This document shows, piece by piece, positions 6,080 through 28,699 of a stretch of DNA of 29,318 nucleotides. Each line of letters begins with the position of its first letter. Within the stretch, counting starts at the first letter, position 1. The notes under the pieces are model-generated. The model made no database searches. It saw nothing but the letters and a program-made list of their open reading frames with translations, and was not told where the DNA came from. The DNA is taken from positions 1 through 29,318 of the forward strand of contig JAGVFW010000005.1 of the NCBI GenBank assembly GCA_020057405.1, given 5' to 3'. Source of the stretch: an archaeon (GTDB lineage Archaea; Micrarchaeota; Micrarchaeia; Norongarragalinales; UBA97). Made by a program: the position numbers and the translations under genes.

Positions 6080-6119
6080 GTCGGCACGCTTTTATTCCTC
6101 CTTTTCCCACCTAGTGGTC

Positions 6120-6284
6120 ATGAAGCGCGGCGACTGGACTCCCATTTACATGCTGCTAGTCGTCATCATCGCGGCAATCATCATCATCGCGCTGATTAAG
6201 CCCGTCTTTAGCGGCGCGGCCCAGACTGCCGGCTCGAACTTGGGTGCCGCGCGCGGCCTCGCCGGCGGAATGCTTTTCCGCTAG
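6120..6284 (+). CDS. 54-aa Flp-like mini-pilin with class III signal peptide (absent from ORF track)
   Basis: Hand translation MKRG|DWTPIYMLLVVIIAAIIIIALIKPVFSGAAQTAGSNLGAARGLAGGMLFR*. Fills the gap between pilin genes; CTTTTAT lies 24 nt upstream. Confidence 0.85.
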   Translation: MKRGDWTPIYMLLVVIIAAIIIIALIKPVFSGAAQTAGSNLGAARGLAGGMLFR

Positions 6285-6319
6285 CCGACTGTTTTTAATC
6301 CCGTTGCGCTAAGCGTTGC

Positions 6320-7018: not shown

Positions 7019-7020
7019 AC

Positions 7021-7043
7021 GGGTTCTTTCGGTGGGAGAACTC
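7021..7043 (+). terminator. Small stem-loop after pilin paralog A
   Basis: GGGTTCTTTC-GGT-GGGAGAACTC pairs over 10 bp using three G-U pairs and is followed by a pyrimidine-rich tract. Confidence 0.3.
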
Positions 7044-7094
7044 CATTTTCCACTTCCATCTGCTTTTATTTACCGCAGCGCTTAAGGTAACACC

Positions 7095-7772
7095 GTGAAT
7101 CGTGCTCAAGCTTCGTGGGGTGTGATGGAAATCCTAATCGCCACCATAATCCTTGGCATGAGCATGGGCGTAGTTTTCTTCTCCCTAAAGAACATCGAGG
7201 AGACGCGCTGCATTGCAGACTTGAAGGGCAGCACTGTCGCACTTCAGAACGCCATGCTCGTCGTCGCCTTTGGAAGCCCTCCGACGACTAAGCGCGTGGC
7301 ATTTAAGATGCCCACCTGCGGGGACAAGTCGGTTGAGGCAGTGCGTTTCGTCTACTACAAGCAGCGCGAGCTCTGCAGGTTGTGTCCGGGCCAGTACGAG
7401 GGATGCTGGGTAATCGAGCCGACAGTCTATGACTTCGTGCAAAAGAAGCTCTACCGGCTTGAGGACGCCGCGGTGTGCGTGCAGATGCCTGCGGACATTT
7501 CAATCGAGGCGGTCATAAGTCCCGAGTGCCTGGGCAGCCAGATGACTGACACGCCGTGCCCCCAGAACTTGCCTGACGGGACCACTTGCAAAATCAAGGA
7601 GACCGCGGGTTTCGCGTCCCCCATTTATGACCCTATCTCCACCCGGTCCGCTTCCGTTTGGCAGACTTTTGGCCGCAAGCAGGGCGACCCCCGCACTTTC
7701 ATTTTCGAACTGTCAAAGGCGGTGACGCCTGGCCTTAGCGGCAGCATCCGGGTCTGCCCAATGGTGAAGTAG
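7095..7772 (+). CDS. Cys-rich minor pilin-like protein, paralog B
   Basis: GTG start; MNRA|QASWGVMEILIATIILGMSMGVVFFSL. Colinear with 6320..7018 (shared CGDKSVEAVRFVYYKQ, CPGQY.GCWVIEPTVYD, TFGRK.GDPRTF.FELSK). Confidence 0.85.
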   Translation: MNRAQASWGVMEILIATIILGMSMGVVFFSLKNIEETRCIADLKGSTVALQNAMLVVAFGSPPTTKRVAFKMPTCGDKSVEAVRFVYYKQRELCRLCPGQYEGCWVIEPTVYDFVQKKLYRLEDAAVCVQMPADISIEAVISPECLGSQMTDTPCPQNLPDGTTCKIKETAGFASPIYDPISTRSASVWQTFGRKQGDPRTFIFELSKAVTPGLSGSIRVCPMVK

Positions 7773-7786
7773 GGGATGAGTGGGCA

Positions 7787-8479
7787 GTGAGGCGCGGCGA
7801 CACTGCAATGTGGGTGCTCACCAAGATGGCGATGCTTTTCTTCATCGCATCGCTTGCGGGCGTGCTCTTGATTTTCGGCGGCTACCAGCAGACGGGCTTG
7901 TGCAACGAGGAGGCCCGCGCAATTAGCGACCGGGTCTCAAGCGGCCTTTCCCAAGTGATTAACTCCCCCGTTGAGGACGAGCGGCGCATCATACAACTAG
8001 AGCCCGCGCTTTCCGTGGGTGACGGCAAGAGCGCCCGCTACACTCTAAACATCACCCGCCGCATCACCGACCGGCCGGAGTTCAACACTCTTTTAATCAG
8101 CGCCTACTCGGATGCCAACCGGGGCTGCAACTCGGGCGTTCAAGTAACCTACAACAAGCGCTGGGACGATGCTAACGACAAGCGCCTGTTTTTCATGCCC
8201 GCAACATCCTCGCCGCCTCGTTATTACCGCGGCGCGTTTGAGACAATGGCACTGCGGCCGTCGGTGCTCAACCCGGCAGTTCAGGGCCCGCGCTCGACTT
8301 TCGTGGCCTTAGTCAAGTGCACGCAAAAGAATGTCGGCAGGAAAGTCTACGTCTTCATCCAGGACTGCACGCAGCAGGACGCGAAGCTCTGCATCGGCTT
8401 CTCTTCCAACAAGCAAGGCGAAAACGCTCCCGGCAGCATCGAGTCGCTTTGCGGTTTTGAGGTGACTCCAACGCCATGA
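7787..8479 (+). CDS. Minor pilin-like protein (class III signal peptide)
   Basis: MRRG|DTAMWVLTKMAMLFFIASLAGVLLIFG; six Cys in the extracellular domain; ATGA overlap with the next gene. Confidence 0.8.
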   Translation: MRRGDTAMWVLTKMAMLFFIASLAGVLLIFGGYQQTGLCNEEARAISDRVSSGLSQVINSPVEDERRIIQLEPALSVGDGKSARYTLNITRRITDRPEFNTLLISAYSDANRGCNSGVQVTYNKRWDDANDKRLFFMPATSSPPRYYRGAFETMALRPSVLNPAVQGPRSTFVALVKCTQKNVGRKVYVFIQDCTQQDAKLCIGFSSNKQGENAPGSIESLCGFEVTPTP

Positions 8480-9066
8480 GGGGAGCAATTGGCCCGATTG
8501 GCGATGACATTCCAAGCATCTTCCCAATCGTCGCGGGAGTGCTCTTGTTCATGTCAACGGCGCTTTACGCAAGCAACCAGCTTTCCGAGCGCAACAGTTA
8601 TCTCGAGCTTTCAAAGGCGGGAATTGGCTTAAGCTACGTCGTCCTTAGCTCGCCTTACATGCGGGACGATTTTTTCAAGGGAGAGTGCACGCAGACTTAC
8701 CGCGATTACGCCGCCCGCAGGCGCGTTGACTTTCTAATCACGGTGAAGAAGTTCTGCCACTACACGGACTTAAACGGCGACATTTTTTCTGTCAAGAACC
8801 CCTACCCGCCGCATCTTTCGCTTGACACTGGAGTGTATGCCGGCGATGGCGGCTACCATCACCTGGGCCTTGCTTGCGGCAGTGACTCTACCAACTGGAA
8901 CGCCGCCCAGGCCCCGTGCGCGGGCGGGGTTTGCAATCTTCTCTTGACTGGCAAGCAGCCCAAAAACTTCCAGTCGTTTAACTTCCCGATTGCGGTTGAC
9001 TGCGGCAAGCAAGAGCCGTTTGTGGGCGTTGGCACGCTTAACATCATCGTTTGGAGGGGCGGATGA
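8476..9066 (+). CDS. Minor pilin-like protein (atypical class III signal peptide)
   Basis: MRG|AIGPIGDDIPSIFPIVAGVLLFMSTALYA; Cys pairs; C-terminal beta-strand 'GTLNIIVWR'; translationally coupled on both sides. Confidence 0.75.
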   Translation: MRGAIGPIGDDIPSIFPIVAGVLLFMSTALYASNQLSERNSYLELSKAGIGLSYVVLSSPYMRDDFFKGECTQTYRDYAARRRVDFLITVKKFCHYTDLNGDIFSVKNPYPPHLSLDTGVYAGDGGYHHLGLACGSDSTNWNAAQAPCAGGVCNLLLTGKQPKNFQSFNFPIAVDCGKQEPFVGVGTLNIIVWRGG

Positions 9067-12346: not shown

Positions 12347-15300
12347 ATGCGCAAGGCCTTCCTTAGCTCCGACAAGCCGTTTGCAGCACTAGTATTCGCC
12401 GTCCTTGCCCTCCAGCTCTTCTCGCCATTCGCTTTCGCCCAGTCAACGCCGGGCCCCGAGCTTAACCCGACCGTCGGGCCGGAAGCGACGCCGACCCCGA
12501 ATCCCGCAACTGTTTCACCTTCAGCAACCCCGTCAGGGGCTGCCTCTTCGGCAACGCCTGTCCCCGAGCCCTCAAACATCGGCATCTGCACGATAAGCGA
12601 GTTTACGCTCGAAGAATGGAACAAGTTCAGGCAGGCGACGTTTAACTTCAACGGAAAGGAAGTCACCGACAAGAGCGACGCGAAGCTTCGCAGCCAGACG
12701 CCCGGCCAGAATGTCATCGTCAACAACTACAATTTCCCGGCCGAGGACAGCGTGGCTTACATACCTGTTGTCGATGTCGCAAAGTTCTTTCCGGGCCGCA
12801 GCGTCGAGGACGTCGCTGGTGACTTGGGCGTTGCGCCAAACGAGAGCGTGACTATTGCGCAGGTCGCATCAGTCACAGCATCCGACCCCAAGGGTGCTAA
12901 CATCATCGCGCAACTTCGCCAGGCCGTGAAGGGCAAGGGTTCGGCAAACCTCGCGCCGGGCTTTGAGTCGCTTAAGGTGACTCTGCCAAACGGCAGGACT
13001 GTTGCAATGTCGGAACTCTACAAGCTTCAGCAAATCCGCGCGGGCGAAGGGCAGCCCAACGCGTGCCTCATCGACAACGCCGCTTTCAGAGGCCGCCTTG
13101 AATACACTGCGCTTATGAAACAGGACTTGCTAATCGGCGCCGACAGCTCGGGCGCGACGCTTAATCATTCGGCTTGCGAGAGCCGCGAGTGCTCTCACAT
13201 TACCACCGACAGCGTGCGCGCGGCGGTCAACAACTTCGAGGGCAACTTCGTCATCCAGAGCTTCTACGAAAAGGCGATATCTGAAATCGGCGGTTGGTTC
13301 GCGTGGGACTTCCTTTCCTCGGGCGTCCTCGCAATCTATTCCGCAAGCGACCTGAACCTCGCGACGAAGAACATCAAGAGCACCGAAAAATACGTTGACG
13401 ACATCAACAAGATGGGCTTTGAGAAGACGATTTCGCAGGAACTCGTGAACAAGGGAGAGACGAGTGTCGAGGCAAGCGCACTCCGCCGCGAGTTTTCCTC
13501 AAAATTCGGTTCATCCATAGTAGGTAAGGAGCAAAACCTCGACATGCCGCAGGTTGTTGGCAACAAGCTCAAGAGCATTCTTGGAAAAGTGCCTGCCGGG
13601 ACTGGGGATGAGGCGAAACTTGCGATGGAGAAGGCACTAGCGCAATATGATTCGGAAATAGCCGCGCTAAACATCCCTGCACTAGAGTCTGCCTTGAAAG
13701 CAGCCGCAACCGATGGCGATTCCGAGACCAAGCTGAAAATCATTTCAAAGCAACTGGACTTGGCTAACGCGCAACGGGCCGAGATTTTGGGTGAAAAAAA
13801 CGGAATGGTATCGATGGACGCCGCCCTTGGAAAGTATTCCGACATTCTTGTTGCTGACGGCGCCGGCAAGCTCGACGTTGACGCGTCCTACGAGGGCCTT
13901 TTCCAGAAGTACAAGGCAATGGGAAAGCGCGAGGACCAGGTGAACTTTCTCGCTGAGCTTGGCGTCATCAGCGACGACCAGGCGCGCTTGGCAATCTATC
14001 GCGGCAAGCTCGACGGCATTGACCAGCGTTCGTCTTACTGGAATAGCGAGGCTGCGAAAGCCGAGCGGTTCGCCAACTTCGGCGCCCGCCGCGCTTGGCA
14101 GAACGTTCTCATCGGCCTGACTTGGCTCGGTCCCGGCAGGCTTGGCCTCGAACTAGCCGGCCAGATTGTGATGACTTCGGCGACAAAGCCGGACGCCACC
14201 CGCGGCGACTACTTACTCGTCTACATCAACAACGGCGATTTCCTAAACACCTTCCGCCACAGCACGGACTTTTTTGGAATGGGCCGCTTCCTTGAGACGC
14301 TAAGCGAAGTGACGCCGTTCACCGCTCCCTACAAAGCTTACGTCACGAGTCCCATGTACGCCTTCCAGACAATGGGCACCACGACGCAGGAAACAGGTTC
14401 CCTAACTTCGCTAACTCAGACCGACGGCGGCTGGCAGATGCTGACTCAATGGAAGGGCGATTCCGACCTCACACTAGTCGAGGACGTGCGCGACGGCAAG
14501 ACCTGGACGAGCACGGCGTTTAAGACAAACTACCTGCGCTTCAGCGCCGCACTGCAGAAAAAGCCCGCGCTTAGGCAATACCACAACATCCTCCTAAGCA
14601 TCGGTCCCATCCTCAGCTGGACTGTCCTTAAGGTAAGCAACATGCCCCAAGGAATTGTCACCCTCGTTCAACTGCAGCTTTTGGAGTTCTACATTGACAA
14701 CATCGTAGACCCCAACTCTTTTAGCCCCGACGAAGTCTGCTCGCAGGACAAGCTTGACGGCTACCTAAGGATGTACAAGTGGATGGTGGTGTTGAGCAAC
14801 GTCGAGCAGGTCGCGCTCTATTCCGACATCGGCACGTGGGCGGGCCGCGGGCTAACTGCAATGATAGCCGCGCGCGACTGGACTTCAATCTCGAAAGGAA
14901 GCAAATTTATTTCCAAGGGCCTAGGGATTTACCGCAAAGTCCAGGTTGCCGACCCGATAGAGTGGGCCAAGGCCTCCTACGGCCACTTGGCGCTTGAGTA
15001 TTCGCTTTCCTGCAAGGACCCGAGCTACAAAGTAGTTGCCTACCAGAAGATTCCCGAGGCGAGCCAGAAGGCAAGCGCCGTTACCGCAATCAAGAAGAAA
15101 GTTTCCGACCCGCTTGGGATTGACAAGATTACAAACGGCCTTAACGTCGGCGAGGCTTTCAAGGGCATCGGCCAGACTGCAACTCAAGCAGACTTGAAGG
15201 AGATTCTAAACCTCAAGTCGCTTGAGAAGAACCAGAATGGCTTGCTAAAGCCCGCTGACATCAACTACATCCACCTCTACCCCGAGGGTGCCGACATGCA

Positions 15301-17362
15301 GTGGTGGGGCGTTTTCGAGAACCAGTGCTTCAGAAACTGCATGCAGCAATCCGATGGCACTTTCGTGTGCGCTGACGGCAACGGCGTTTACCTAGAGCGC
15401 AATGGAACCCGCATTGACTTGGCCGACCGCGAGCGCGCACTCATGAGCGACTTTCTCCCGTCTCTTGGCTTAGTAGTGCCTAACAAGATTATCACCGCGC
15501 CGCTTGACTGCAGCCCCGACTCGGCGGTTCTCGAGGCGCGAAGCGACGCGACGCTTAACGTGATTGACGGCGGCTGCCCTGCAACCGACTGCGCAATGAA
15601 GTCGCTCGTGCGCGTGAGCGGCAAGAACGTGGGCAATGACTTGAGTGAAGTCATGGGGCCCGTCGAAGTCATCTACACGACCCAAGGCATTGCCTCCCGC
15701 TACAACAACGAGTACCGCTTCATGCGCACAAAGGGCGTAAGGACGCAGGAGTTAAGCACGATACTCAAAGTTCCCATTCCCTTCACCAACCGCACTGAAG
15801 TTGACTTGAACAAGAATGGCGCTACCGGCAGCAACCAAAAGAGCCTCGCCGGCACCGAAGAGCGCTACCGCACGGTGCAAATCATGGGCGACGGCCGCGT
15901 GCGTTCCGACAGCGAACTGGGCGAGCTTCTCACAATCCAGATGCAGAATGGCGTGATTCACTTTGACCGCGCGACGCGCAAGCTCTACGTGCTGATAAAA
16001 ATCCTTGCCATGGCCCCCGGCCGAGACATCACCGGCATCTCGGCCGCACCCGCCACAGTCGCCGGCCCCAAGGCCGACCTTGACAAATTAGCCCGCGACC
16101 TAGACTCGCTAAAGGCGGCCCTCGCCTCGGGCCAACAATTAAACGCCGCCCAACTTGAGCTGCTAAAGTCGATTCTTGAGAAGGGCGCGCCGACGGGCCA
16201 GCTTCTAAACAAGGAAGAGCGCGACAAGCTTGCCGCCATTCTAGACAAGCAGTCAAAGGGCATTTCCCTAAACCAAGCCGAATCGGACTTGCTTAAGAAG
16301 GCACAGTCGGAAGACAAGTTCCCCGGCGTAATCGTGCTTCCGCCCGAAAAGACGCAGACGATTGAAAAGACGCTCAAGGAGCAGGGTGTCGACCCGACTC
16401 TAGTAAAGCAAATCATCGACAAGCTCACCGCAGGCACTCCTCTCTCCGCTGCGGACAAGGCTGCCGCCCAGGACGCCCTAGACAAGTCAGCGGCCGCGGG
16501 CAAGCTCTCCGCCGACCAGGCTTCGACGCTAAAGGCCGACCTTGAGAAGACCATATCGGCTGCCAGCCGCGCTAACGAGATTGCCAACGCTGCCGCTCTC
16601 GACAAGCTTACTGCCGAACAGAAGGCGCTTGCGATAAAGGTTGCCCAAGACGAGGCTGACGCCGCGCGAGCCAGGGCAAAAACCGCTTCAGACAACCCGA
16701 CTCCGGCAATCAAGCTTGGTGGCGTCACCGCAAAAGTGGGCGCAGAGCAGTCCGCGCAAGACTTAAACCGCGCGCTTGAGAAGGTCGGTGGCTTTACGGA
16801 CCTCTCGACTGAGAAAACTGCGCTCCAGTTCGCCACCAACGCCAATGGCGAGTCTGTGCTGCGCACTGCAGACAAGGCAACTGGCGCAACCCAGGAGCTT
16901 AAAATCACTGGCGCGCCCACCCGGGATGGCAATGCCGTTGTCATCCCGACTGACAAGGGGCTGGTGAAGATTGACGTTAATGTGAACAAGGACAACGGCG
17001 CCCCCGTTGTCAACATCAATGGTGCGGGCTTGCGCGATTCCTCGGCACTCATTTTAGCCCAAGGCCCCGGCGGCATGCTGTTCTTTGACCCCAAGACGGG
17101 CACTTGGCAAGTGCGAAACGGCGCTGCAATCGGCGCCGACGGTGCGTTTGGCACCAATGGCATTAGTTACTATGGCAGTCCCGACGGCACGCGCGGCCTG
17201 CCCCAGCAAGGCGCTCTTGGCTATAACCAAATCCTTGGCTCCTCAAGCGGCAACAACCCGCTTTTGGCCCTCCCAAGCTGGCCGGAGCAACCGCCCTTGG
17301 CTGCCGCAATGCTTGCGCTAGTATTGCTTGGAGTGCTTGCGGTTCGATTCAGGCGCAATTAG
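12347..17362 (+). CDS. Very large secreted, C-terminally membrane-anchored protein of unknown function (1671 aa)
   Basis: Sec-type signal peptide ending AFA|Q, Pro/Thr linker, Cys pairs, helical repeats, C-terminal TM helix plus RFRRN. CTTTTAAA lies 24 nt upstream. Confidence 0.9.
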   Translation: MRKAFLSSDKPFAALVFAVLALQLFSPFAFAQSTPGPELNPTVGPEATPTPNPATVSPSATPSGAASSATPVPEPSNIGICTISEFTLEEWNKFRQATFNFNGKEVTDKSDAKLRSQTPGQNVIVNNYNFPAEDSVAYIPVVDVAKFFPGRSVEDVAGDLGVAPNESVTIAQVASVTASDPKGANIIAQLRQAVKGKGSANLAPGFESLKVTLPNGRTVAMSELYKLQQIRAGEGQPNACLIDNAAFRGRLEYTALMKQDLLIGADSSGATLNHSACESRECSHITTDSVRAAVNNFEGNFVIQSFYEKAISEIGGWFAWDFLSSGVLAIYSASDLNLATKNIKSTEKYVDDINKMGFEKTISQELVNKGETSVEASALRREFSSKFGSSIVGKEQNLDMPQVVGNKLKSILGKVPAGTGDEAKLAMEKALAQYDSEIAALNIPALESALKAAATDGDSETKLKIISKQLDLANAQRAEILGEKNGMVSMDAALGKYSDILVADGAGKLDVDASYEGLFQKYKAMGKREDQVNFLAELGVISDDQARLAIYRGKLDGIDQRSSYWNSEAAKAERFANFGARRAWQNVLIGLTWLGPGRLGLELAGQIVMTSATKPDATRGDYLLVYINNGDFLNTFRHSTDFFGMGRFLETLSEVTPFTAPYKAYVTSPMYAFQTMGTTTQETGSLTSLTQTDGGWQMLTQWKGDSDLTLVEDVRDGKTWTSTAFKTNYLRFSAALQKKPALRQYHNILLSIGPILSWTVLKVSNMPQGIVTLVQLQLLEFYIDNIVDPNSFSPDEVCSQDKLDGYLRMYKWMVVLSNVEQVALYSDIGTWAGRGLTAMIAARDWTSISKGSKFISKGLGIYRKVQVADPIEWAKASYGHLALEYSLSCKDPSYKVVAYQKIPEASQKASAVTAIKKKVSDPLGIDKITNGLNVGEAFKGIGQTATQADLKEILNLKSLEKNQNGLLKPADINYIHLYPEGADMQWWGVFENQCFRNCMQQSDGTFVCADGNGVYLERNGTRIDLADRERALMSDFLPSLGLVVPNKIITAPLDCSPDSAVLEARSDATLNVIDGGCPATDCAMKSLVRVSGKNVGNDLSEVMGPVEVIYTTQGIASRYNNEYRFMRTKGVRTQELSTILKVPIPFTNRTEVDLNKNGATGSNQKSLAGTEERYRTVQIMGDGRVRSDSELGELLTIQMQNGVIHFDRATRKLYVLIKILAMAPGRDITGISAAPATVAGPKADLDKLARDLDSLKAALASGQQLNAAQLELLKSILEKGAPTGQLLNKEERDKLAAILDKQSKGISLNQAESDLLKKAQSEDKFPGVIVLPPEKTQTIEKTLKEQGVDPTLVKQIIDKLTAGTPLSAADKAAAQDALDKSAAAGKLSADQASTLKADLEKTISAASRANEIANAAALDKLTAEQKALAIKVAQDEADAARARAKTASDNPTPAIKLGGVTAKVGAEQSAQDLNRALEKVGGFTDLSTEKTALQFATNANGESVLRTADKATGATQELKITGAPTRDGNAVVIPTDKGLVKIDVNVNKDNGAPVVNINGAGLRDSSALILAQGPGGMLFFDPKTGTWQVRNGAAIGADGAFGTNGISYYGSPDGTRGLPQQGALGYNQILGSSSGNNPLLALPSWPEQPPLAAAMLALVLLGVLAVRFRRN
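16121..16640 (+). repeat. About six degenerate helical peptide repeats in the giant protein
   Basis: GQQLNAAQLELLKSILEK / GQLLNKEERDKLAAILDK / GISLNQAESDLLKK / GTPLSAADKAAAQDALDK / GKLSADQASTLKADLEK / DKLTAEQKALAIK. Confidence 0.7.
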
Positions 17363-18426
17363 TAGGCGAACTCTAGTTTTCTGCCCGCTGGCATCTTGAG
17401 CTTGGCGTTAATCTGGTTCACTGCAGTCTGAAGTCGCGCTGCTGATTCAGTTGCCCTTTGCTTGTAGCGGCGTACCAGTGAATCTTGCGCGCGCGAGCGC
17501 TGGACTTTTCCGTGCGCTTTTGCGGCCTTGTCTAGTGCCGCTTGAAGCGCGCTTAGTTCCGTCGCGTTGATTGCGCGGCCCTGTCTAGAAAGCCCGGTTA
17601 CTAGTGTGCTCATCGCGGCGTGGGAAGTCGCTTCGATGTCGTTAGTGGCGGTGAAAAGCGGCAAGTAGCTGGTTGGCGCAGGTTCGTAAGAGCTTGAGGA
17701 CCGCGGCCGGTAAGTGAGCGTGCGTCCGCCCTTCTCTGGTTCGGTTTCCTCGGCTTTCTCTTTTTCAGCCTGTTTTTTTTGCTCTTCCATGAATGCCGTG
17801 TGCTTTTCTTCAGCGAGGAGCCTTGCGGCGTTGACGTCGCGAGCGCCCTTCTGGAGGTTCAGGTTGGTTTCCTCGTCGATTTCAAGCGGGGCGGCTGCCT
17901 TTTCCAGTAGAGCCTGGATTCGCTCGACGTGTTTTTGTGCTTGCGTAATCCTTTGGCTTGAGCCGGTGAGGGGAGCAGCGGCGCTTAAGGAGAACGTCAT
18001 TTCCTGCAGGGTCGGGAGCGCGTTTCCGAAGGCAGCCGCGCGGTTGCGTAGTTCAAGCATTTTTTGGTAGGCGGCTAGCCATTCCTGGTGCTTGTCGCTC
18101 AATTTTTCAGCAATAGTCTCGACTTCCTGCGTGCTTGCCCGCGGGTTAAACCTGATGCCTGAGAAAACCGAGCGTTCCCTGCCGAACTCGGACTCCAGTT
18201 CTGCCGCCCGCCTTGACGCTTCTAAGAGCTTGTCATGGATTTTGGTAGCTTCGTTTAGCTGCTTTTCGACTTGCGGGTGATTTTCCTTGAAGTATTCTTC
18301 CGCGTGCTTTTGCGCCCAGTTCTTAGGCGCGTCCCACTTGAAGAGCGAGCCTACGCGGTGGGCAAAGCGGACTGAAAACGGCAGGCCAACCTGCCTTTCG
18401 GCAGCCCCGCCCCGTGCTTCAACCAT
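17359..18426 (-). CDS. Hypothetical coiled-coil-rich protein starting MVEARGG (355 aa)
   Basis: Long ORF. Start reassigned from 18522 to ATG 18426, supported by ATTTAAG 24 nt upstream on the minus strand, and this removes the overlap with the divergent gene. Stop overlaps the stop of the giant gene. Confidence 0.75.
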   Translation of the reverse strand: MVEARGGAAERQVGLPFSVRFAHRVGSLFKWDAPKNWAQKHAEEYFKENHPQVEKQLNEATKIHDKLLEASRRAAELESEFGRERSVFSGIRFNPRASTQEVETIAEKLSDKHQEWLAAYQKMLELRNRAAAFGNALPTLQEMTFSLSAAAPLTGSSQRITQAQKHVERIQALLEKAAAPLEIDEETNLNLQKGARDVNAARLLAEEKHTAFMEEQKKQAEKEKAEETEPEKGGRTLTYRPRSSSSYEPAPTSYLPLFTATNDIEATSHAAMSTLVTGLSRQGRAINATELSALQAALDKAAKAHGKVQRSRAQDSLVRRYKQRATESAARLQTAVNQINAKLKMPAGRKLEFAY

Positions 18427-18522
18427 AATGGCATTCTTTTGCCGGGCCCGCTTAAATGGCTTTCCTCGCCGGTTGCCAGGGTAATTAATAAAAGGCGGCA
18501 GGGGAACAATTCTTCGAGTCAA
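18427..18522. promoter_or_regulatory. Divergent promoter region between the two MVEARGG genes
   Basis: Minus-strand GGAAAGCC-ATTTAAG (TATA-like at 18451-18457) and plus-strand TTAATAAAA (18485-18493). Confidence 0.6.
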
Positions 18523-20754
18523 ATGGTTGAAGCTCGCGGTGGCGGACTAACTTCGGTTAGGGGAGCTGGCGGCATTTTCAAGCGCTCAATCATAGGCAAT
18601 GCAATTACGCTTCAGTGGCGCCGGCGCATTGTCGAGCCATACGCTAATTTTATCGAGCGCGCCAGCGGTTCCATTCTGGCCGCCGCCGGCAAGTGGGACG
18701 CCGGCGAGATGGTGAACATCGGCGGCAAGTACTACACTTATCACGTGAGCCAAAAAGTGGTTAAGCGCGCGTATGATGGCGCTCCCCGCCCCGGCATGGC
18801 AGGCAAGTACCCGAGCAGCGGTGGCGTCATGCCGCTTGGTACTGCGCCTGACGGTAAGGACCACCGGATGGTGTTGGTTCCGGCAGACCGTCCCAATTTC
18901 TTCAAGTGGATGTGGTGGGGCTTAACCGGCCGCAACCGCGCTCCGGGCGGCACGCTTGCCCAGATGGGCATTGACGGGCCAAAGGGGTTCCGTGACTGGT
19001 CGCGCTATTGGCGCGAGTGGCGCTACTATAGTTACTCGCCTTCAACCGACATGCCTTCCTCGCTCTCAGGGTTTTACTTTGACGGTGTTGGCTCAACCCG
19101 CGGCATGAGCAAAGAGGAAGCAGGCAACGTGCTGGGCAAGGCGCTTACTGATGCAGGCGGGGAGACCGCGTCGCTGCAGCTGATTAAGGAAATGATTACC
19201 AAGCGCTTCCGCTCAAACGGCGTGATGGCCATTACGGGTGAAATGCTTGACGAGGCCCTGCGCATGCACACGATGTACGATGACGACTTGGGCGGCAAGG
19301 GCGAATGGGAGGGCCTTGGCGACTACGCCGAGCCCTACGTCAAGGGAAAAGGAACGCCGGGCGCGAGCTTGACCGAAAGCTGGCCAACGCGCTTAAAACC
19401 AATTGAGACGCCCCAGAAGAACATCGGCGAGCAGCTAAGGAATTTCCGGACCGACTACGACAAGAAGAAACTGGAGTTTGACAAGCTAGCTGACTACATT
19501 TCTGGTCGTGAGGCCGTGCTTAAGCGCCGTGGAGTTAGCGATGTGGATATGAAGACCGAGCTAAGCGCGGAGTATTCGAAGTTGAGCAAGTCAGCCGACG
19601 AACTGAAGGCCTCGACTGAAAAGACAAACAAGTCTGTAAAGGAAAAGACGGCGCGTGTTTACTGGCTTGAGGAGCTTAGCCCGGTGCAGATCATCCGCCT
19701 CTACAATTACCTCTACGTCAAGACTTCGCTTTCTGGCAGTTCGTTCGGCCACCAGGACCGCCAAGTTTACGACAAGGGAGAGTACGTCGACCAGTATGTC
19801 AATGACAAGTGGGTCGGCGGCCAGCGCGACAAGCACGGCGTTTCCGAAGTGGACAAGTACGGCTTGCCGGGTTCTGGCACGCTTGACGCGCACGGCATGC
19901 CAATGCACTACCGCGGCCGTTCGCAGATTTTCCTCAACCAGGGCGGCGTCGCTGGCTTTGGCTGGCAGTCCTTGGGCCAGGAGGTTGGCGGCGACCCGCA
20001 CATGGAATTCGCTTTCGGCCGCGACTTCTGGCCGACTTTCGCGCCCATCTACTTAAGCAAGGCTCGAAGGCTATTGTCGAACCTAAACAGCAAGAACGGC
20101 AAGATTCTCAACTGGTGCATAAATGACAAGCGGGACTTGAGGTCAACCATCAGCAAGTACCGCCAGACGCTCAAAAACGATGCTTACTTGTGGATGAGAA
20201 AAGGAATTCTCGACCACTATGACGACATTGCCTACACTGCAGCCAATACCATGGGCGCGCCCGAGGAGGTAATGCACATGCAGCTCAACCTCCACAATTA
20301 CTCCGACCACGACGCCGGGGAAGACTGGGATGCAATGAGGCGCTCGCTCCACGCCTTCCTCCTTGACCTCGAGCAGTCGGTGCCGCAGTACGTAATCGAG
20401 GGCTACCCCGGCGCGGGCGCTTACTTTGTCAGCAAGCGGCTGAAAAAGCGCTACGCGCTAATCCAGAAGGCAGCTTCAATAGTCTCGCAGCTGCGCGTTG
20501 AGGCGGACGAGAAGAAGCGCGAGGAAATCAAGAAGAACCTCGAGATGCAGTTCAAGCGCCACTGGCTCTCGAAGGAAGAAACCGGCGTTGACCCCGATAG
20601 CCTGACGACCGAGCTTATCACGCTTCTTGAGCGCTATCCGGACCTGCTTAAGCTTTGGACAATGCCCTCAGCGCACAGCGGCTCGCCAACCAAGATTGGT
20701 TCAATACCGGTTACGACCGCTGCAGACCGAACGGGCTCGATGCCGTTTAGATGA
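18523..20754 (+). CDS. Hypothetical protein starting MVEARGG (743 aa)
   Basis: Long ORF with genome-typical codon usage; start reassigned from 18439 to ATG 18523. No recognised domain; Trp-rich patches and a central coiled coil. Confidence 0.8.
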   Translation: MVEARGGGLTSVRGAGGIFKRSIIGNAITLQWRRRIVEPYANFIERASGSILAAAGKWDAGEMVNIGGKYYTYHVSQKVVKRAYDGAPRPGMAGKYPSSGGVMPLGTAPDGKDHRMVLVPADRPNFFKWMWWGLTGRNRAPGGTLAQMGIDGPKGFRDWSRYWREWRYYSYSPSTDMPSSLSGFYFDGVGSTRGMSKEEAGNVLGKALTDAGGETASLQLIKEMITKRFRSNGVMAITGEMLDEALRMHTMYDDDLGGKGEWEGLGDYAEPYVKGKGTPGASLTESWPTRLKPIETPQKNIGEQLRNFRTDYDKKKLEFDKLADYISGREAVLKRRGVSDVDMKTELSAEYSKLSKSADELKASTEKTNKSVKEKTARVYWLEELSPVQIIRLYNYLYVKTSLSGSSFGHQDRQVYDKGEYVDQYVNDKWVGGQRDKHGVSEVDKYGLPGSGTLDAHGMPMHYRGRSQIFLNQGGVAGFGWQSLGQEVGGDPHMEFAFGRDFWPTFAPIYLSKARRLLSNLNSKNGKILNWCINDKRDLRSTISKYRQTLKNDAYLWMRKGILDHYDDIAYTAANTMGAPEEVMHMQLNLHNYSDHDAGEDWDAMRRSLHAFLLDLEQSVPQYVIEGYPGAGAYFVSKRLKKRYALIQKAASIVSQLRVEADEKKREEIKKNLEMQFKRHWLSKEETGVDPDSLTTELITLLERYPDLLKLWTMPSAHSGSPTKIGSIPVTTAADRTGSMPFR

Positions 20755-20771: not shown

Positions 20772-21551
20772 ATGGAACCGGGATTTGAAGCAATAATCAA
20801 GGCCGCAATCAGCGAGGCCGCCCCAGAGGCAATAAAGGCGATAGGCAATGCCTTCAAGGATAAAGTCAAGGCCGACCTGCGCGTGAGGCACGGCAACGAC
20901 AAGATTGACGAGAAGACCCTTGACACTCAAAAGGAGGCATTTTTAGCGCAGTATGGGGCTCTGCTTCACGCCGCTGCCCCCTTCAGCAAGATTGAGCACC
21001 ACTACCTCTACCGCTCAAAGGGCTTTGGTGACATGACGACCAACCTAGCCCGGAGGCTTGCCGACCTGAAGGTGGAAGAAACCGGCTTCACCGACGAGCA
21101 CCCCAAGTACGTCCAGCTTTTCACAAACGCGCTTCACCAAATGCTGATGACTTACCAGACGACGGACCCGCAGCACCCGATGGACTACTGGGCCGAGCGC
21201 ATGGAGAAATTTGTGAGGCCCGAGGACATTGACAAATTGATTGCACCGGGAAAAACGTATGACGCTTACACTAAGCCTTACCTAAACCTCATGGCCCAGG
21301 GCCCGGGCTTCTTCGAACTGACCATGAGACTTGACAATTTCGAGGGAGAAGCACGCCACGCGCCTTTTGAGGACGACATGGGCAAGAAAGGGAAGCACTT
21401 GCGCGACGAGCTAAGGTGGACTGGCGAGCTAACTCCTGAAGGCCGCGTCAAGTTCACGGGCCACGGCTTTGGCATTGGCACTGAAACCATAAATGCAGTC
21501 AAGCAAGCCGCAAAGGTTCACGCGACAAGGATTGCCAAAGAATACCGCTAG
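20772..21551 (+). CDS. Hypothetical protein (259 aa)
   Basis: ATG preceded by GAGG, 17 nt after the upstream stop; probably co-transcribed. Confidence 0.75.
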   Translation: MEPGFEAIIKAAISEAAPEAIKAIGNAFKDKVKADLRVRHGNDKIDEKTLDTQKEAFLAQYGALLHAAAPFSKIEHHYLYRSKGFGDMTTNLARRLADLKVEETGFTDEHPKYVQLFTNALHQMLMTYQTTDPQHPMDYWAERMEKFVRPEDIDKLIAPGKTYDAYTKPYLNLMAQGPGFFELTMRLDNFEGEARHAPFEDDMGKKGKHLRDELRWTGELTPEGRVKFTGHGFGIGTETINAVKQAAKVHATRIAKEYR

Positions 21552-23383: not shown

Positions 23384-24028
23384 ATGCTAGAGTTTGCCGC
23401 GCTGGCTTTTGGCCTTGGGGTCAAGCACAGTTTTGACGCCGACCACCTAATCGCCGTCTCCAACCTGCTTACCCGCTCGAAATCCCTTTTTCATTCAGTC
23501 CAAAACGCGGTTTACTGGGCCGGCGGGCACATGCTCGCCGCTTCCGTAATCACTTTACTGCTCCTGACTTTCCGCGACTCGCTGTTACCTGTCATTCTAG
23601 ACAAATTCGAGATTGCAGTCGCCGCAATGCTGATTTTCCTCGGCCTCGCAAGCATAAGTCAAGCCCTGTCGTTTCACTCCCACCGCCACGAGCACGGCGG
23701 CGAGTCGCACGAGCACCACCACTTCCACATTCGCGCAAACGACGGCCACGAGCACGGCCACATGTTCGGAATCGGTATCGTCCACGGGCTTGCAAGCAAC
23801 GACGAGCTGCTCTTGCTCCTCACAGTTTCCCTCGGCCTGGCGACAGCGGCGGAAATGGTCGCCGGAGTCGCAATCTTTTCCTTTGGTGTCGCACTTGGCA
23901 TGGTCGCGTTCAGCGCATTATTCACTTTGCCCATAGTGAAGGCAAAAAGCGTGCAGTTTTTGCGCGCCATTAACCTTTTTGTCGGCCTGCTAAGCGTCGG
24001 TTACGGGCTTGTGATGGTGCTTGGATGA
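23384..24028 (+). CDS. Nickel/cobalt transporter-like membrane protein (HoxN/NixA-UreH family)
   Basis: GVKHSFDADH signature, 'WAGGH', His-rich loop HSHRHEH...HEHHHFH, 'GIGIVHGLA', about 6 TM helices. Confidence 0.85.
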   Translation: MLEFAALAFGLGVKHSFDADHLIAVSNLLTRSKSLFHSVQNAVYWAGGHMLAASVITLLLLTFRDSLLPVILDKFEIAVAAMLIFLGLASISQALSFHSHRHEHGGESHEHHHFHIRANDGHEHGHMFGIGIVHGLASNDELLLLLTVSLGLATAAEMVAGVAIFSFGVALGMVAFSALFTLPIVKAKSVQFLRAINLFVGLLSVGYGLVMVLG

Positions 24029-25113: not shown

Positions 25114-25785
25114 GTGAGACTTGCTTTCGCCCTCGGGCTGTTTGCATTGCTTTTCTTTTCATTTGCTAGCGCCGCCTCTTTACCCGGCAGCTATCTTGTT
25201 CTTGTGTCCGGAGATTGCTCTTCTGACCCTGCAAAGTGCGTTGGGTTGACCGGCACGGGTTCCAGCCCGCAATTATCTAGTCATATTGCGTCAAACACGC
25301 CTTTGGGCAGCACTGACTTGCGGGGCCCGCCAAGCATTTCACCAGCGACAATCCAGCGCGTTCTGGCGCAGGGTGGTTCTCCCGCGGCCTCCGAACCCGG
25401 TTTTGCCCAGTGCCTTTACGACGCAGGGAAACAATCCGGTATCGACCCGGCGTTTCCGCTCGCTTTCTTCAAGCGCGAGTCTAGTTTCGGCAGAGCGGGT
25501 ATAGCAAAATCGACTAAGGGCATTGGAAACGTCAAAGGTTCTGGTTCCGCAGGAAGCTACAAGGGCTTTCGTGCCTACTCTACTTGGTGTCAGGGTGCGA
25601 AGGATTGGTTCGGGCTTATTTCCGGCAGCAAGTATTACTTCGGGGGCAGTCACTTTACGCTAGAGCAAATACTTCCGATTTACGCCCCGACGAGCGACAA
25701 TAACGTCTTGTACGGAAACGGCGGCTACATTAACGGCGTGGCGGGACTTGTCTCGTCATGGCGCAACAGCGAGAGATATGCCTAA
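25114..25785 (+). CDS. Secreted lysozyme-fold glucosaminidase (GH73-like), putative peptidoglycan hydrolase
   Basis: Signal peptide ending ASA; 'LYDAGKQSGIDPAFPLAFFKRESSFG' with putative catalytic Glu in ES; 'FRAYSTWCQG'; 'TLEQILPIYAPTSD' equivalent to the YATD motif. Confidence 0.8.
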   Translation: MRLAFALGLFALLFFSFASAASLPGSYLVLVSGDCSSDPAKCVGLTGTGSSPQLSSHIASNTPLGSTDLRGPPSISPATIQRVLAQGGSPAASEPGFAQCLYDAGKQSGIDPAFPLAFFKRESSFGRAGIAKSTKGIGNVKGSGSAGSYKGFRAYSTWCQGAKDWFGLISGSKYYFGGSHFTLEQILPIYAPTSDNNVLYGNGGYINGVAGLVSSWRNSERYA

Positions 25786-25821
25786 GCCCGCGGGTGTTGA
25801 CTAATTAGCGCTTTTGATTTT

Positions 25822-26454
25822 TTACGCATAGGTGGGCGCCGCAGTTCTTCGCACGCGCCTGTAGCCCGAAAAGTGTCCGCCTGCAACGCCTAACGAGCCG
25901 TCGCAGTTGTTGCTTTGCTTGACTATTCCCGCGCTGCTGCTTGCTGCAATGAATTTGCCGCAGGGAATGCCGTTGACCGAGCGAGTGGCCTGCAGGAATA
26001 TTCCGACGTGGGTAACGGTTCCAGGCGGCTTGGCGGGATTGGTGCCTTTCCAACAGAGCAGGTCGCCGGGCTGCGGAATTTCAACTTTATCTGAGAATCT
26101 TGAATCGCATTGTTCTGCCGCAGTTCTCGGAAGTGCCACGCCGTAAGCTTGTTTTACGAGCGCCTTGGTGAAACCCGAGCAGTCGGTCAACCCGGAAATT
26201 CCTCCCTCCGGAAGGAATGTAACATCGTTTGAGCCGTAGCCGTAGCGCACCTGGCCGCCCAGTGATTTGATTGCGTTTTGCGCAAGCAGGTTGTTTGAGT
26301 CGTAGTTGCCGTTGGTAATGTAACTGTCGATTCCGGCCGCCCTTACGCACGCGTTAGGGTCGGGGCACGCGCCTTCGAGCATAGTAACGTAGCTTTCGGC
26401 GTACGCTAGGCTGGAGAGAACGAGCACTGCGGCGACGATGGCGAATGCCTTCAC
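25822..26454 (-). CDS. Secreted NlpC/P60 (C40) cysteine peptidase, putative peptidoglycan endopeptidase
   Basis: Signal peptide ending AYA; Y.YG, DCSGF, 'YGVALPRTAAEQ', 'QPGDLL', 'HVGIF', 'FIAASSSAGI', 'GYRRV'. Confidence 0.92.
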   Translation of the reverse strand: MKAFAIVAAVLVLSSLAYAESYVTMLEGACPDPNACVRAAGIDSYITNGNYDSNNLLAQNAIKSLGGQVRYGYGSNDVTFLPEGGISGLTDCSGFTKALVKQAYGVALPRTAAEQCDSRFSDKVEIPQPGDLLCWKGTNPAKPPGTVTHVGIFLQATRSVNGIPCGKFIAASSSAGIVKQSNNCDGSLGVAGGHFSGYRRVRRTAAPTYA

Positions 26455-26492: not shown

Positions 26493-27077
26493 TCAGGGTT
26501 TTCTTAGGAAGCTCAAAAACAACGTGTGCATCAGGCCCTTGGTCTCCGGCCGCGTGCCTTGCGGGCGCACGAGCCACTCGCGGGGCATGACGTCAATCGT
26601 GCGCTCGTGGACAAAGCCGAGTTCCTCGCCCTTTAGCACGAAAGTCTTGACTTGCTCGACGTTTGGCAGAAACGCGACGCAGGCGCCCTTCTTCTTTAGC
26701 GCATTTAGGGCGTGCGGCAAGGCGTTTTCTGCATTCGCCAGGTCAAGAAAGACTGCGTCGAGCTCGGTCTCGTCAATGCCGTCGAAGATGCTTTTTTGCT
26801 TGAATTCGATTATCGAGTCAAGGCCGGCCTTCACGCCGTTCTTCTTTGAAAGCAAATGAAAGTCCTCGCGCCACTCGTAAGAATAGACTTTCCCTGCCGG
26901 GCCGACGATGGTTGCGAGGTAGATTGCAAGCCAGCCGCTTCCGCTGCCTGCGTCAAGCACCCTGTCGCCATTGGCAACTCCCGCAAACGCCGAGGCGTAG
27001 GCCGCGTCCTTTAGGAGGACGACCTGCGGGCCGCGGGATAGTTTCTTGAAAAAGTCCGGTGTTCGCATGCTAATCAC
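26493..27077 (-). CDS. trmI: tRNA (adenine-N1)-methyltransferase TrmI-like, short form
   Basis: 'RGPQVVLLKD', SAM motif VLDAGSGSG, 'GKVYSYE', 'DAVFLDL', 'PNVEQV', 'TRP....MHT.FL'. Start GTG 27077 or ATG 27068. Confidence 0.85.
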   Translation of the reverse strand: MISMRTPDFFKKLSRGPQVVLLKDAAYASAFAGVANGDRVLDAGSGSGWLAIYLATIVGPAGKVYSYEWREDFHLLSKKNGVKAGLDSIIEFKQKSIFDGIDETELDAVFLDLANAENALPHALNALKKKGACVAFLPNVEQVKTFVLKGEELGFVHERTIDVMPREWLVRPQGTRPETKGLMHTLFLSFLRKP

Positions 27078-27107: not shown

Positions 27108-27824
27108 TTAGTGCGTCGACCAGAATGCGTAGTAGACGCTAGGCGAGCTGCCTTGGCTATAGCCGTACGAGTAGTACGTGTAGGGCGAGTAGCCGTAGCT
27201 TCCGCACCCGTAGGAGCAGCCGCTTCCGTATCCGCTGCCATAGTTGTAGCCGCTTGAGCCGTAGCCCGAGTAGCCGTTGCCATAGCCGCTTCCGTAGCTG
27301 TTGTACGAGTTAGAGTTGTAGTCGCCGTAGTAGTTGGTGTTGTACGAGTCGCGGATGTAGGTGTTGCCGCCGGACCCGCTGCCGCTTGAGGACGAGATTG
27401 CGCCATAGCTGTAACCCGAGCTGCCGTAAGCGCCGTAGCCCGAGTTGGCTGAACCAGACCCGTAAGTGCCGTAGCCGCGTGAGCCGTAGACGCTCTCGTA
27501 GGCTGCATAGCCGTTGTAGTACTGGTTGTTGTAAGTATAGCCCGTGTCGCGGGGTGCGGTGTCGTAAGCGTGGTAGTTGCCGTTGGAGTCATACCAATTG
27601 GTGTACTTGCTATACGGGTTTGAGTACTGCGAGGCGTAGGGGTTAGTGTTACGCCACTGGAGCGCCTGCTGGTTGTAGTAACTATTAATGTAAACGCAGT
27701 CGCCGGCAGACTGGCTGTAGGTTGCGTATCCGCTGCACGCGCGGCTGTCGACCGCGTTGGCAAAGCCCGCTGCGGCTGCAAGAACGATGACGAGGATCAA
27801 TCCATAAGTCAGGTAACGCAACAT
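27108..27824 (-). CDS. Secreted Tyr/Gly/Ser/Asn-rich low-complexity protein
   Basis: Signal peptide ending ANA; AAGGTGG SD before ATG; about 50 Tyr in 238 aa by hand count. Confidence 0.8.
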   Translation of the reverse strand: MLRYLTYGLILVIVLAAAAGFANAVDSRACSGYATYSQSAGDCVYINSYYNQQALQWRNTNPYASQYSNPYSKYTNWYDSNGNYHAYDTAPRDTGYTYNNQYYNGYAAYESVYGSRGYGTYGSGSANSGYGAYGSSGYSYGAISSSSGSGSGGNTYIRDSYNTNYYGDYNSNSYNSYGSGYGNGYSGYGSSGYNYGSGYGSGCSYGCGSYGYSPYTYYSYGYSQGSSPSVYYAFWSTH

Positions 27825-27944: not shown

Positions 27945-28016
27945 GCCCCGGTGGCGCAGTGGTAGCGCGATTGCCTTGTAAGCAATAGGTCGAGGGTTCA
28001 ACTCCCTCCCGGGGCT
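27945..28016 (+). tRNA. tRNA-Thr(TGT)
   Basis: Acceptor GCCCCGG/CCGGGGC+T, D arm GCGC/GCGC, anticodon arm ATTGC CT TGT AA GCAAT, T arm GAGGG TTCAACT CCCTC. Confidence 0.95.
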
Positions 28017-28699
28017 CTTGATGTAATCTGACGGTACGCATCAATTTTCTTCAAATGCTTCTGGTTCGAGAATCCGATGAGGCTCATCCATTTGTCCAGC
28101 TGGTCTTCGTTGTAGATTACTATTTCGTAGATTTGATGTATTCCGTTCTTTTTCTTCGCAGCATAGATTGAGAAGTATTTTTCTAGGATTTCTTTCAATT
28201 GGAGAAAAAGCGGCTCGCTTGCTATCCTGAGCGTTATTCGTGGATATGGTTTTCGGTAAATCTTGCGATTATCGACGAAAAAATTTCCATCCGTGTCAAA
28301 AATGCCTCGGATTGAGGCAAAAACGAGTTTTTCTCCTCCATTAATGATTTCCGGAGGAATTGAAACGGTGTAAGTTTTGTTTCCCGGAATAAACCCGAGC
28401 CTTTCGGTCAAAAACCCGAAGATTCGCTTTGAACAGATGTTTAAAATCATTGTTCGAGAATCACGCAGCAATATCGTCGGCTTCTTTTGGAATGTTGTTT
28501 CGAGTATCTTGACTAGATATTCTGTAAGATAGTCGTCGTCCAGTTCAGCGTTACCGGTAATGAAAACATGATATTTGGAGTTTCCGCGAACGTCAAGATA
28601 TCCATCAATGGAGCCGTCTCCGATAACTGCCCCTACGAATTCGCATAAGTCTTCCGTTAAGGGCATATCTTCCGTAAGTTCGGCCGTCTGCTTGAGCAT
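27998..28699 (-). CDS. Free-standing double-motif LAGLIDADG homing endonuclease-like protein
   Basis: Motifs FVGAVIGDG and IRGIFDTDG; C-terminal 'IGFSN.KH'; visibly more AT-rich than the flanks; no intein or intron host gene. Confidence 0.88.
   Translation of the reverse strand: MLKQTAELTEDMPLTEDLCEFVGAVIGDGSIDGYLDVRGNSKYHVFITGNAELDDDYLTEYLVKILETTFQKKPTILLRDSRTMILNICSKRIFGFLTERLGFIPGNKTYTVSIPPEIINGGEKLVFASIRGIFDTDGNFFVDNRKIYRKPYPRITLRIASEPLFLQLKEILEKYFSIYAAKKKNGIHQIYEIVIYNEDQLDKWMSLIGFSNQKHLKKIDAYRQITSRAPGGS

Follow-up and report, generated by a model that had tools for sequence, protein, structure and literature searches.

Two neighbouring secreted cell-wall hydrolases, encoded in a 29,318-nucleotide stretch of archaeal DNA (the window, contig C8 of its genome), have unrelated catalytic folds, yet their mature forms begin with the same short two-cysteine peptide, and we find that comparable heads occur at the same position on wall hydrolases of one archaeal family, swapped among at least four catalytic types. 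We read this head as a modular tag that addresses or docks enzymes without any other anchor, at a probability of roughly 0.4; binding itself, the disulfide and the partner are what we infer from the pattern set out below. The source genome, G000 (1.22 Mb, 17 contigs, 55.8% G+C, estimated completeness 90.6%), resembles Micrarchaeota of the DPANN archaea, its nearest named relatives being 'Candidatus Micrarchaeota archaeon' records. A sequence-only reading of the window had singled out the motif as the strongest candidate for an undescribed system, and the word system is too strong: what emerges is a family-restricted tag, hitherto undescribed, borne by enzymes of a known kind. New here is the lineage-restricted N-terminal two-Cys module of ~18–20 residues; the sharing of a non-catalytic module among wall hydrolases is already known.

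The two open reading frames (ORFs), ORF A for a GH73-like enzyme and ORF B for an NlpC/P60 enzyme, lie tail to tail, 36 bases apart, and both start with GTG behind a Shine–Dalgarno-like sequence 11–12 bases upstream (Table 1). Reading signal peptides by eye from the sequence (charged n-region, hydrophobic core, A-x-A site), we find in both a leader of the Sec/signal peptidase I type that ends in A-x-A and directly precedes the motif, whose two copies recur exactly at the coordinates and on the strands first read for them. The copies have the common consensus S-Y-x5-G-x-C-x1-2-D-P-x2-C-V, and BLASTP of ORF A against ORF B aligns the N-termini alone (E = 0.002). We compared the 30 residues after each leader across the 398 signal-peptide-like ORFs of G000, picked by our own hydrophobicity filter: the A–B score of 42 is equalled or beaten by just 58 of the 79,003 ORF pairs, mainly paralogues or Thr/Pro-rich linkers, and each of ORF A and ORF B finds its best match in the other, the next best scores being 35 and 29. 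The pattern C-x5-8-C-[VI] occurs in the post-leader stretch of 3 of the 398 ORFs, ORF A and ORF B among them, and the stricter G-x-C-x1-3-DP-x2-C-[VIL] in these two only of 12,702 six-frame ORFs; the motif was found in no other ORF of G000.

That the folds behind the shared head are unrelated, as had been proposed, holds up. ORF B matches NLPC_P60 (PF00877) at 42.8 bits (cut-off 23; E = 5.8e-11), in agreement with a genome-wide family search, and its catalytic Cys92 (D-C-S-G-F) and His149 (H-V-G) fall in invariant columns of a nine-sequence alignment. ORF A matches the Pfam family PF01832 (Glucosaminidase) weakly, at 15.1 bits against a cut-off of 30.2, and its orthologue P0013 reaches 29.8 bits against the same cut-off; in the AlphaFold2 model of ORF A, a helical domain predicted with confidence begins at residue 66 (predicted local distance difference test, pLDDT, mostly >85), and its best Foldseek matches are LytB (7pj3), Auto (3fi7), Ecd09610 (8yxk) and FlgJ (5dn4), with AtlA matched too (probability 0.99–1.00, template-modelling score about 0.4–0.6, E from 1e-3 to 5e-2). 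ORF A also matches the endolysin phrog_3513 (E = 4.5e-5), and its Glu122, invariant among eight homologues, is the putative counterpart of the GH73 catalytic Glu. At Pfam E<=1 the two proteins match Glucosaminidase, NLPC_P60 and CHAP only, with no LysM, SH3, peptidoglycan-binding or dockerin family; NCBIfam adds no wall-binding family, and neither ORF has a second hydrophobic stretch, so that the first impression of enzymes without a LysM, SH3b or transmembrane anchor stands. The head itself has no match in Pfam, NCBIfam or PHROGs.

In the models the head lies outside both catalytic folds, as the sequence-only reading had supposed. For ORF A, pLDDT is below 50 at almost all of residues 5–65 and 84–97 over residues 71–140; for ORF B, block means rise from 47 (residues 21–30) and 60 (31–40) to 81–96 from residue 51 on, residues 18–27 being below 50. 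Because the input alignments were shallow (9 rows for ORF B and 8 for ORF A), the missing confident head structure says little about the head itself. The Gly/Ser/Asn linker described behind both motifs is present in ORF A and missing from ORF B, where the motif nearly abuts the N-terminal helices of the NlpC/P60 domain.

We searched 61 related genomes with each protein and read the loci, and other wall-lytic carriers, which had been predicted, were found there: M23 enzymes, more NlpC/P60 and GH73-like enzymes, and one domain without a family. In all, 13 proteins have a two-Cys head right after the leader, on four cargo types: GH73-like (ORF A, P0013), NlpC/P60 (ORF B, P0012, P0015, P0017), M23 (P0014, P0016, G001 L172:2117-2701 and, from metagenomes, P0018 and P0019) and a fourth cargo domain (P0010, P0011). 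The heads in the sister genera G002, G003 (70% complete), G005 and G006 have the form C-x8-C-[VI] and mostly adjoin the same trmI-like gene as in the window. G006 repeats the window's neighbourhood of Tyr-rich protein, trmI-like methyltransferase, GH73-like enzyme and NlpC/P60 enzyme, and both its enzymes open after the leader with NCFSDSYNGVCI[VI]SQNG; in G005 the NlpC/P60 enzyme starts with APGTCDDSSFKGVCVVASDPG and the adjoining M23 enzyme with APGTCDDASFNGVCVVASDAG; and in G003 the trmI-adjoining NlpC/P60 enzyme, the one tagged enzyme seen there, starts with DCLDSSYSGVCVLSEA. A profile (A3) of the heads from G006, G005 (NlpC/P60, M23) and G003 recovered three proteins outside it (E values per genome): a third G005 protein (6e-7), which adjoins trmI and bears the Cys-rich fourth cargo domain, and two G002 proteins (0.008 and 0.03) encoded by adjacent genes beside trmI, with the fourth cargo domain and M23. 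The trmI-like gene stands beside hydrolase genes in G001, G002, G003, G005, G006, G020 and G051; the contig of G004 ends inside trmI, cutting off this locus.

The cargo itself shows some peculiarities. The fourth domain (P0010, P0011) matches no Pfam, NCBIfam or PHROG family, the lone row, MgrB at 14 bits, covering the leader; among solved structures it has a weak match to the expansin EXLX1 only (E = 0.41), so that the label 'DPBB/RlpA-like' is unproven. All of the tagged M23 enzymes named above end in a second small Cys loop, C-x5-C-[RS]RGS (for example ACNVFGCRRGSRVA). The string SYNGVC in G006 resembles the 'pediocin box' of class IIa bacteriocins, YGNGV-x-C-x4-C-x-V; the Cys order differs, and we do not file the head there.

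Within the genus, the cargo of the locus has turned over, from NlpC/P60 and GH73-like in G000 to M23 and a soluble lytic transglycosylase (SLT) in the same-genus genome G001 (73% complete). Head profiles found nothing in G001; its trmI locus (L172, G001:C12:11487-15059) holds a Tyr/Gly/Ser-rich secreted protein, trmI, an M23 enzyme (2117-2701, +; E = 1.4e-24) whose mature end QVQISASCMPKDICVTTG reads C-x5-C-V, as in ORF B, and a convergent SLT enzyme (2706-3356, -; E = 4.7e-25) whose mature end QAGFNGISVFHGE is, by eye, the G005 head minus its cysteines. In another family, f11, trmI-adjoining GH73-like enzymes and an adjacent NlpC/P60 enzyme have a common Cys-less post-leader stretch that resembles SYLVLVSGD of the window: PSDSAVLFFGESL and PSDSALLLIGKSV in G054, PPDAVGIFLGFKV in G020 and CPANQVCFFYGASL in G058. 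One such locus, L005 (G054:C5:7420-10884; ORFs 305-1072 and 1117-1980), encodes adjacent NlpC/P60 and GH73-like enzymes with the stretches APSDSALLLIGKSV and IPSDSAVLFFGESL, and G020, G051 and G058 are similar. This comparison suggests that the hydrophobic strand may be the ancient core and the cysteines lineage-specific staples, the f11 stretch perhaps being an ancestral form of the tag.

The heads of one genome resemble each other more than they resemble those of other genomes, even where the enzymes behind them are not homologous. Compared over 19 codons, a span that opens three residues ahead of the first Cys and closes six past the second, five within-genome pairs on non-homologous enzymes are identical at 13–16 of 19 residues (proportion of nonsynonymous differences, pN, 0.07–0.17; of synonymous differences, pS, 0.37–0.74), whereas 23 between-genome pairs are identical at 3–9 of 19 (pN 0.33–0.62; pS 0.59–1.21). 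The head of the G005 M23 enzyme agrees at 16/19 positions with that of the G005 NlpC/P60 enzyme and at 7/19 with that of the G002 M23 enzyme, and orthologous enzymes are 32–62% identical outside the head and 26–47% within it. With 6 genomes, 13 proteins and 19 codons the set is tiny, and the genomes are related and hence not independent, so that this genome-specific identity is a pattern rather than a statistic. Because synonymous sites have diverged, recent gene conversion is not the sole cause, and gene conversion alone was set aside; the peptide is under selection in each copy, and the head is under purifying selection.

The same figures bear on whether the head binds anything at all. A head without a binding role, as a structural cap or an export or processing context kept alike by occasional recombination, would suit the within-genome pS values, which lie below most of those between genomes, as if heads had been exchanged after the genera split; it would also suit the lack of a confident AlphaFold2 head structure and the Cys positions, which are not fixed across the order, the G001 SLT and f11 enzymes having a similar hydrophobic stretch minus the Cys pair. 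We nevertheless consider it unlikely: the identity begins just past leaders that are themselves unrelated (only 2–5 of the 15 residues just upstream are identical within a genome), pN/pS of about 0.1–0.26 indicates selection on the peptide in each copy, and a generic cap need be neither genome-specific nor confined to wall hydrolases, while 0 other secreted ORFs of G000 carry it. A propeptide that blocks the active site was set aside, since one sequence would need to suit four unrelated active sites.

Database searches place the head in a single family, f1. Among 401 genomes sampled across the phylum, the four sampled f1 genomes match and 0 of the 397 others do. An exhaustive scan of 1.84e9 representatives returned 8 proteins at E<=1e-3, namely 7 of these hydrolases and P0020, a repeat protein judged spurious; a search of 5.8e9 proteins, restricted by shared words, returned 10 matches, all of them these hydrolases. 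Across the 68 genomes of the order, the matches outside f1 are short ORFs that were judged spurious: a leaderless 90-residue ORF that overlaps longer ORFs (G054:C74, E = 2e-5) and a 23-residue ORF in G065. A survey of GH73-like homologues, covering the best 80 loci (75 with Chloroflexota-lineage names), found the head in none of their ORFs, and most of the homologues there have a hydrophobic, transmembrane-like stretch upstream instead. An ESM Atlas feature search with the P0012 head gave no usable match. From this distribution we conclude that the catalytic domains look bacterial in type and that the head was added in this archaeal family. Literature searches on peptidoglycan hydrolases of Micrarchaeota and DPANN archaea turned up no mention of such a tag; supplementary tables may list related proteins.

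The tag sits on every anchorless wall hydrolase found in G000: our queries returned four such enzymes, and the two without an anchor are ORF A and ORF B. An M23 protein of about 870–900 residues (C6:8107-10800) has an N-terminal transmembrane segment, and an M23-like protein on contig C1 has a canonical lipobox, FFVTGC. An 'SLT-like' label for the C-terminus of the 898-residue C6 protein was dropped, PF01464 being without a match in G000. Lipoprotein-type anchoring appears to be common in this genome, with 39 lipobox-like ORFs by our own filter, mostly with LAGC, LFGC or VTGC right after the hydrophobic core (for example C1:35625, C14:79187 and C16:50212; in many a Thr/Pro-rich linker follows).

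Could the first Cys of the head be such a lipid-attachment site, with an unusual lipobox, or the head another covalent sorting signal? Like a lipobox lipoprotein, the head places a Cys shortly past the signal peptide of a surface enzyme, 3–5 residues past the predicted cleavage site in G002, G003 and G005. Unlike one, it fits neither the lipobox consensus [LVI][ASTVI][GAS]C nor its position, VSGD-C and LEGA-C lying 15 and 11 residues past A-x-A. The Cys is preceded by T, S, D or N in the heads of the relatives and by D or A in those of the window; in G000 and G006, ~10–15 polar residues stand between it and the hydrophobic core; good A-x-A sites lie ahead of it; canonical-looking lipoboxes occur in G000; and the second Cys is invariant too. 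Covalent attachment is extremely improbable on these grounds. A type IV pilin-like (class III) signal was excluded by the A-x-A site that follows the hydrophobic core.

We propose the following course of events. ORF A and ORF B would be exported by Sec, and after leader cleavage a non-catalytic head of ~18 residues would form the mature N-terminus, consisting of a short hydrophobic stretch and a two-Cys loop, probably closed by a disulfide, with a linker or helix leading to the enzyme. The head in the window would be a local, divergent version of one archaeal family's tag, borne by small secreted wall hydrolases of any fold, and would hold enzymes devoid of both membrane anchor and lipobox at a single lineage-specific site that they share, most likely on the producer's own envelope where it touches a bacterial wall. 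Separate enzymes might thereby act jointly, like the giant fused multi-hydrolases of sister genomes: an open frame of at least 935 residues in G005 (L002, G005:C65:1-2862) fuses M23, GH73-like, NlpC/P60 and Amidase_3 domains, with the fourth cargo domain last, and one of at least 675 residues in G002 (L003, G002:C7:10902-14411) has M23 and GH73-like domains; a stretch ...A[IL]..A..CNP[LF] before the first enzyme domain is common to these two and to C6:8107-10800 of G000. A shared address tag would fit four observations together: the head is modular, it is alike within a genome, it is confined to wall hydrolases, and these enzymes also exist in fused form.

The producer's own envelope is favoured over the prey wall as the docking site because the tag changes between genera as fast as the enzymes or faster, which suits a co-evolving protein partner better than it does a conserved polymer. 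A disulfide-stapled substrate-targeting element that binds the bacterial wall or prey surface, in the role of LysM, SH3b or PG_binding_1, seems improbable on the same ground, peptidoglycan chemistry being conserved while the head keeps pace with the catalytic domains in divergence or outruns them; moreover, the head is short and acidic, known wall-binding domains differ from it, and the bacterial GH73-like homologues do not use it. What speaks for wall binding, which would make the head an unusually small targeting peptide, is that all cargos are of wall-hydrolase types and none has a known wall-binding domain, and that phage lysins and two archaeal enzymes, Woldo and Danwoldo, are documented to share one targeting module across different catalytic domains within a genome (PMC12352652). 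A further alternative is that heads bind each other, by strand pairing and maybe inter-chain disulfides, and so assemble the enzymes into a complex; a self-complementary interface would explain why the heads of one genome are alike, and G005 and G002 have these domains as fusions. We think this quite unlikely, as C-x6-C opposite C-x5-C suits a symmetric interface poorly, G003 has one tagged enzyme (in an assembly 70% complete) and fusion needs no contact between domains.

A more specific form of the address-tag reading takes the dockerin–cohesin system of the cellulosome as its model, in which dockerins are duplicated Ca-binding segments of ~70 residues, usually C-terminal. Like dockerins, the head is a short non-catalytic tag on unrelated folds, alike within an organism and divergent between organisms; unlike in that system, no cohesin-like partner is known here, and the absence of any Dockerin match at Pfam E<=1 led us to reject the class itself. 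In this form a disulfide-stapled tag of ~20 residues would plug interchangeable hydrolases into a co-evolving, genome-specific envelope receptor, with the Tyr-rich neighbour or the stalk of the giant hydrolases as candidates, to form a cell-bound complex that opens bacterial walls on contact. So detailed a version is rather unlikely to be right.

As for the first candidate, a Tyr-rich gene lies just upstream of trmI in all six genomes with the tag (the G001 copy judged by eye, composition and position). A single N-domain query finds the protein in G000 and G006 only, and a five-sequence profile finds it in G000, G002, G003, G005 and G006, misses the G001 copy and gives one likely compositional match elsewhere in the order, in G054. 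The protein has a mid-region motif DS[YF]N..[DN]S[YF]N.N[ST]Y and an aromatic C-terminus, PS.Y..[YF][WFY][RSG][ST], and may be a surface matrix or adhesive protein. Since gene and tag are physically linked at the locus, their co-occurrence is a lead and no evidence; a general disulfide exchange between head and Tyr-rich protein was ruled out, the G002 protein having no Cys.

Whether the window motif belongs with the C-x8-C heads is a question on which sequence and context diverge. We place it with them on account of its position (directly behind a Sec-type leader on a wall-hydrolase cargo, as in the family heads), its rare Cys pattern (a pair 5–8 residues apart, then Val or Ile), the kind of cargo, with direct orthologues in G006, and the locus, whose trmI-like and Tyr-rich genes are common to G000, G001, G002, G003, G005 and G006. 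The orthologues and the other secreted proteins of G000, where the sequence-only reading had expected the motif, lack the exact string S-Y-x5-G-x-C...D-P-x2-C-V, the orthologues having C-x8-C-[VI] or C-x5-C-V instead; its other expectation, a motif outside the catalytic folds, was borne out.

Several observations weigh against the address-tag reading. A leave-out profile of eight C-x8-C heads, run against G000, does not place ORF A or ORF B in its top 15, all matches being other ORFs at E>1; the G001 M23 head shows no significant similarity to the window heads (ranks 18 and 51 of 398); and two MAFFT runs conflict on the pairing of cysteines, one matching the first Cys of the window to the second of the relatives and the other aligning both pairs with SY-LVLVSG inserted. 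The loops of the window are unequal in length, C-x6-C in ORF A and C-x5-C in ORF B, a docking domain of ~18 residues would be very short, and the likeness within genomes could come from old intragenomic copying instead of a shared partner. The activity of ORF B is also uncertain without the usual third catalytic His: at about residues 165–170 it reads FIAAS where 6 of the 8 other sequences have [FV]IH[AS] (such as FIHAP), with an insertion, ATRSVNGIPCGK, immediately before the Ala-for-His site. Ala and insertion may alter activity or specificity; the NlpC/P60 family tolerates other third catalytic residues.

The first of these points, with the modest pairwise BLASTP value and the lack of a close orthologue with the same string, would be expected if the window motif were a coincidence, or a private and functionless duplication, unrelated to the C-x8-C head. 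We regard that as very unlikely: ORF A and ORF B are adjacent as well as reciprocal best matches, the base rate of the Cys pattern is 3/398, the same locus in G001 has C-x5-C-V on a different enzyme, and the syntenic G006 orthologues carry a two-Cys head at the same position.

The closest precedents known to us are Woldo (M23 with two PG_binding_1 domains) and Danwoldo (glucosaminidase with two PG_binding_1 domains) of Halogranum salarium, which are reported to kill a bacterium (PMC12352652). As there, one archaeal genome here encodes different bacterial-type catalytic folds with closely related non-catalytic modules; unlike there, the module is an N-terminal two-Cys peptide of ~18–20 residues behind a Sec-type leader, and wall binding is only putative. 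The archaeal survey in that report admitted proteins only with a binding domain already known, which left enzymes of the ORF A and ORF B type outside it (PMC12352652). DPANN archaea have bacterial-type murein hydrolases, including a large lytic murein transglycosylase in Woesearchaeota (PMC9723730). G000 and its relatives have large enzymes of this sort and likewise display bacterial-type enzymes as murein-less archaea, whereas ORF A and ORF B are small and single-domain, with a cleavable leader and a tag in place of a transmembrane segment and a long stalk. How tiny DPANN cells keep small secreted enzymes in place is a question for which the tag offers a concrete handle; if it does tether enzymes at the cell surface, we would have in it a natural docking module of very small size, and a clue to how bacteria are attacked on contact.

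The analysis also corrects a public gene call that removes leader and tag: P0007 (160 residues) begins ORF A at Leu64 and so drops 25114-25302 (+). Support for the long form comes from its leader, from a Shine–Dalgarno-like GGAGG 12 nucleotides 5' of the GTG and from P0013, an orthologue of full length. P0008 and P0009 (154 residues as called), which are closest to ORF A, may be cut at the N-terminus in the same way; a metagenome scan for their contigs returned just three distant loci, at 28% identity.

Table 1. Features of the two tagged hydrolases and their neighbours in the window
Feature	Coordinates	Strand	Description
ORF A	25114..25785	+	223 residues, GTG start; signal peptide, two-Cys head, linker, GH73-like glucosaminidase domain
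ORF A signal peptide	25114..25173	+	Residues 1-20, ...SFASA before A; leader MRLAFALGLFALLFFSFASA before A; read from sequence
ORF A head motif SYLVLVSGDCSSDPAKCV	25189..25242	+	Residues 26-43; hydrophobic stretch and C-x6-C-V
ORF A linker	25243..25308	+	Residues 44-65; Gly/Thr/Ser/Pro-rich; pLDDT <50; unalignable among homologues
ORF A catalytic domain	25309..25782	+	Residues 66-223; from alignment, AlphaFold2 and Foldseek
ORF B	25822..26454	-	210 residues, GTG start; signal peptide, two-Cys head, NlpC/P60 domain
ORF B signal peptide	26398..26454	-	Residues 1-19, ...SLAYA before E; leader MKAFAIVAAVLVLSSLAYA before E; read from sequence
ORF B head motif SYVTMLEGACPDPNACV	26344..26394	-	Residues 21-37; hydrophobic stretch and C-x5-C-V
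ORF B NlpC/P60 catalytic domain	25843..26307	-	Residues 50-204; from Pfam, alignment and AlphaFold2
GCD14/TrmI-like tRNA methyltransferase	26493..27077	-	PF08704, E = 1e-23; conserved locus anchor
Tyr/Asn/Ser/Gly-rich low-complexity secreted protein	27108..27824	-	238 residues; no Pfam or NCBIfam family

Elsewhere in the window, positions 1133-9066 (+) hold a type IV pilus-like set, with a T2SSE-type ATPase (1133-3397) and a weakly matching T2SSF-like membrane protein (3404-5557) followed by five small ORFs without a family, of which 6320-7018 and 7095-7772 are clear paralogues (30-residue score 95). An ORF of 1671 residues (12347-17362, +) matches no Pfam family at E<=0.01, and the ORFs that flank it (17359-18522, -; 18439-20754, +; 20772-21551, +) are likewise without a family. 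The product of 23384-24028 (+) is a membrane protein whose loop HSHRHEHGGESHEHHHFH...HEHGH is rich in His and which matches NicO-type nickel/cobalt transporters weakly, at 26.2 bits (cut-off 27.7), and a free-standing gene for a LAGLIDADG-type homing endonuclease (PF14528, E = 6e-8) lies at 27998-28699 (-).

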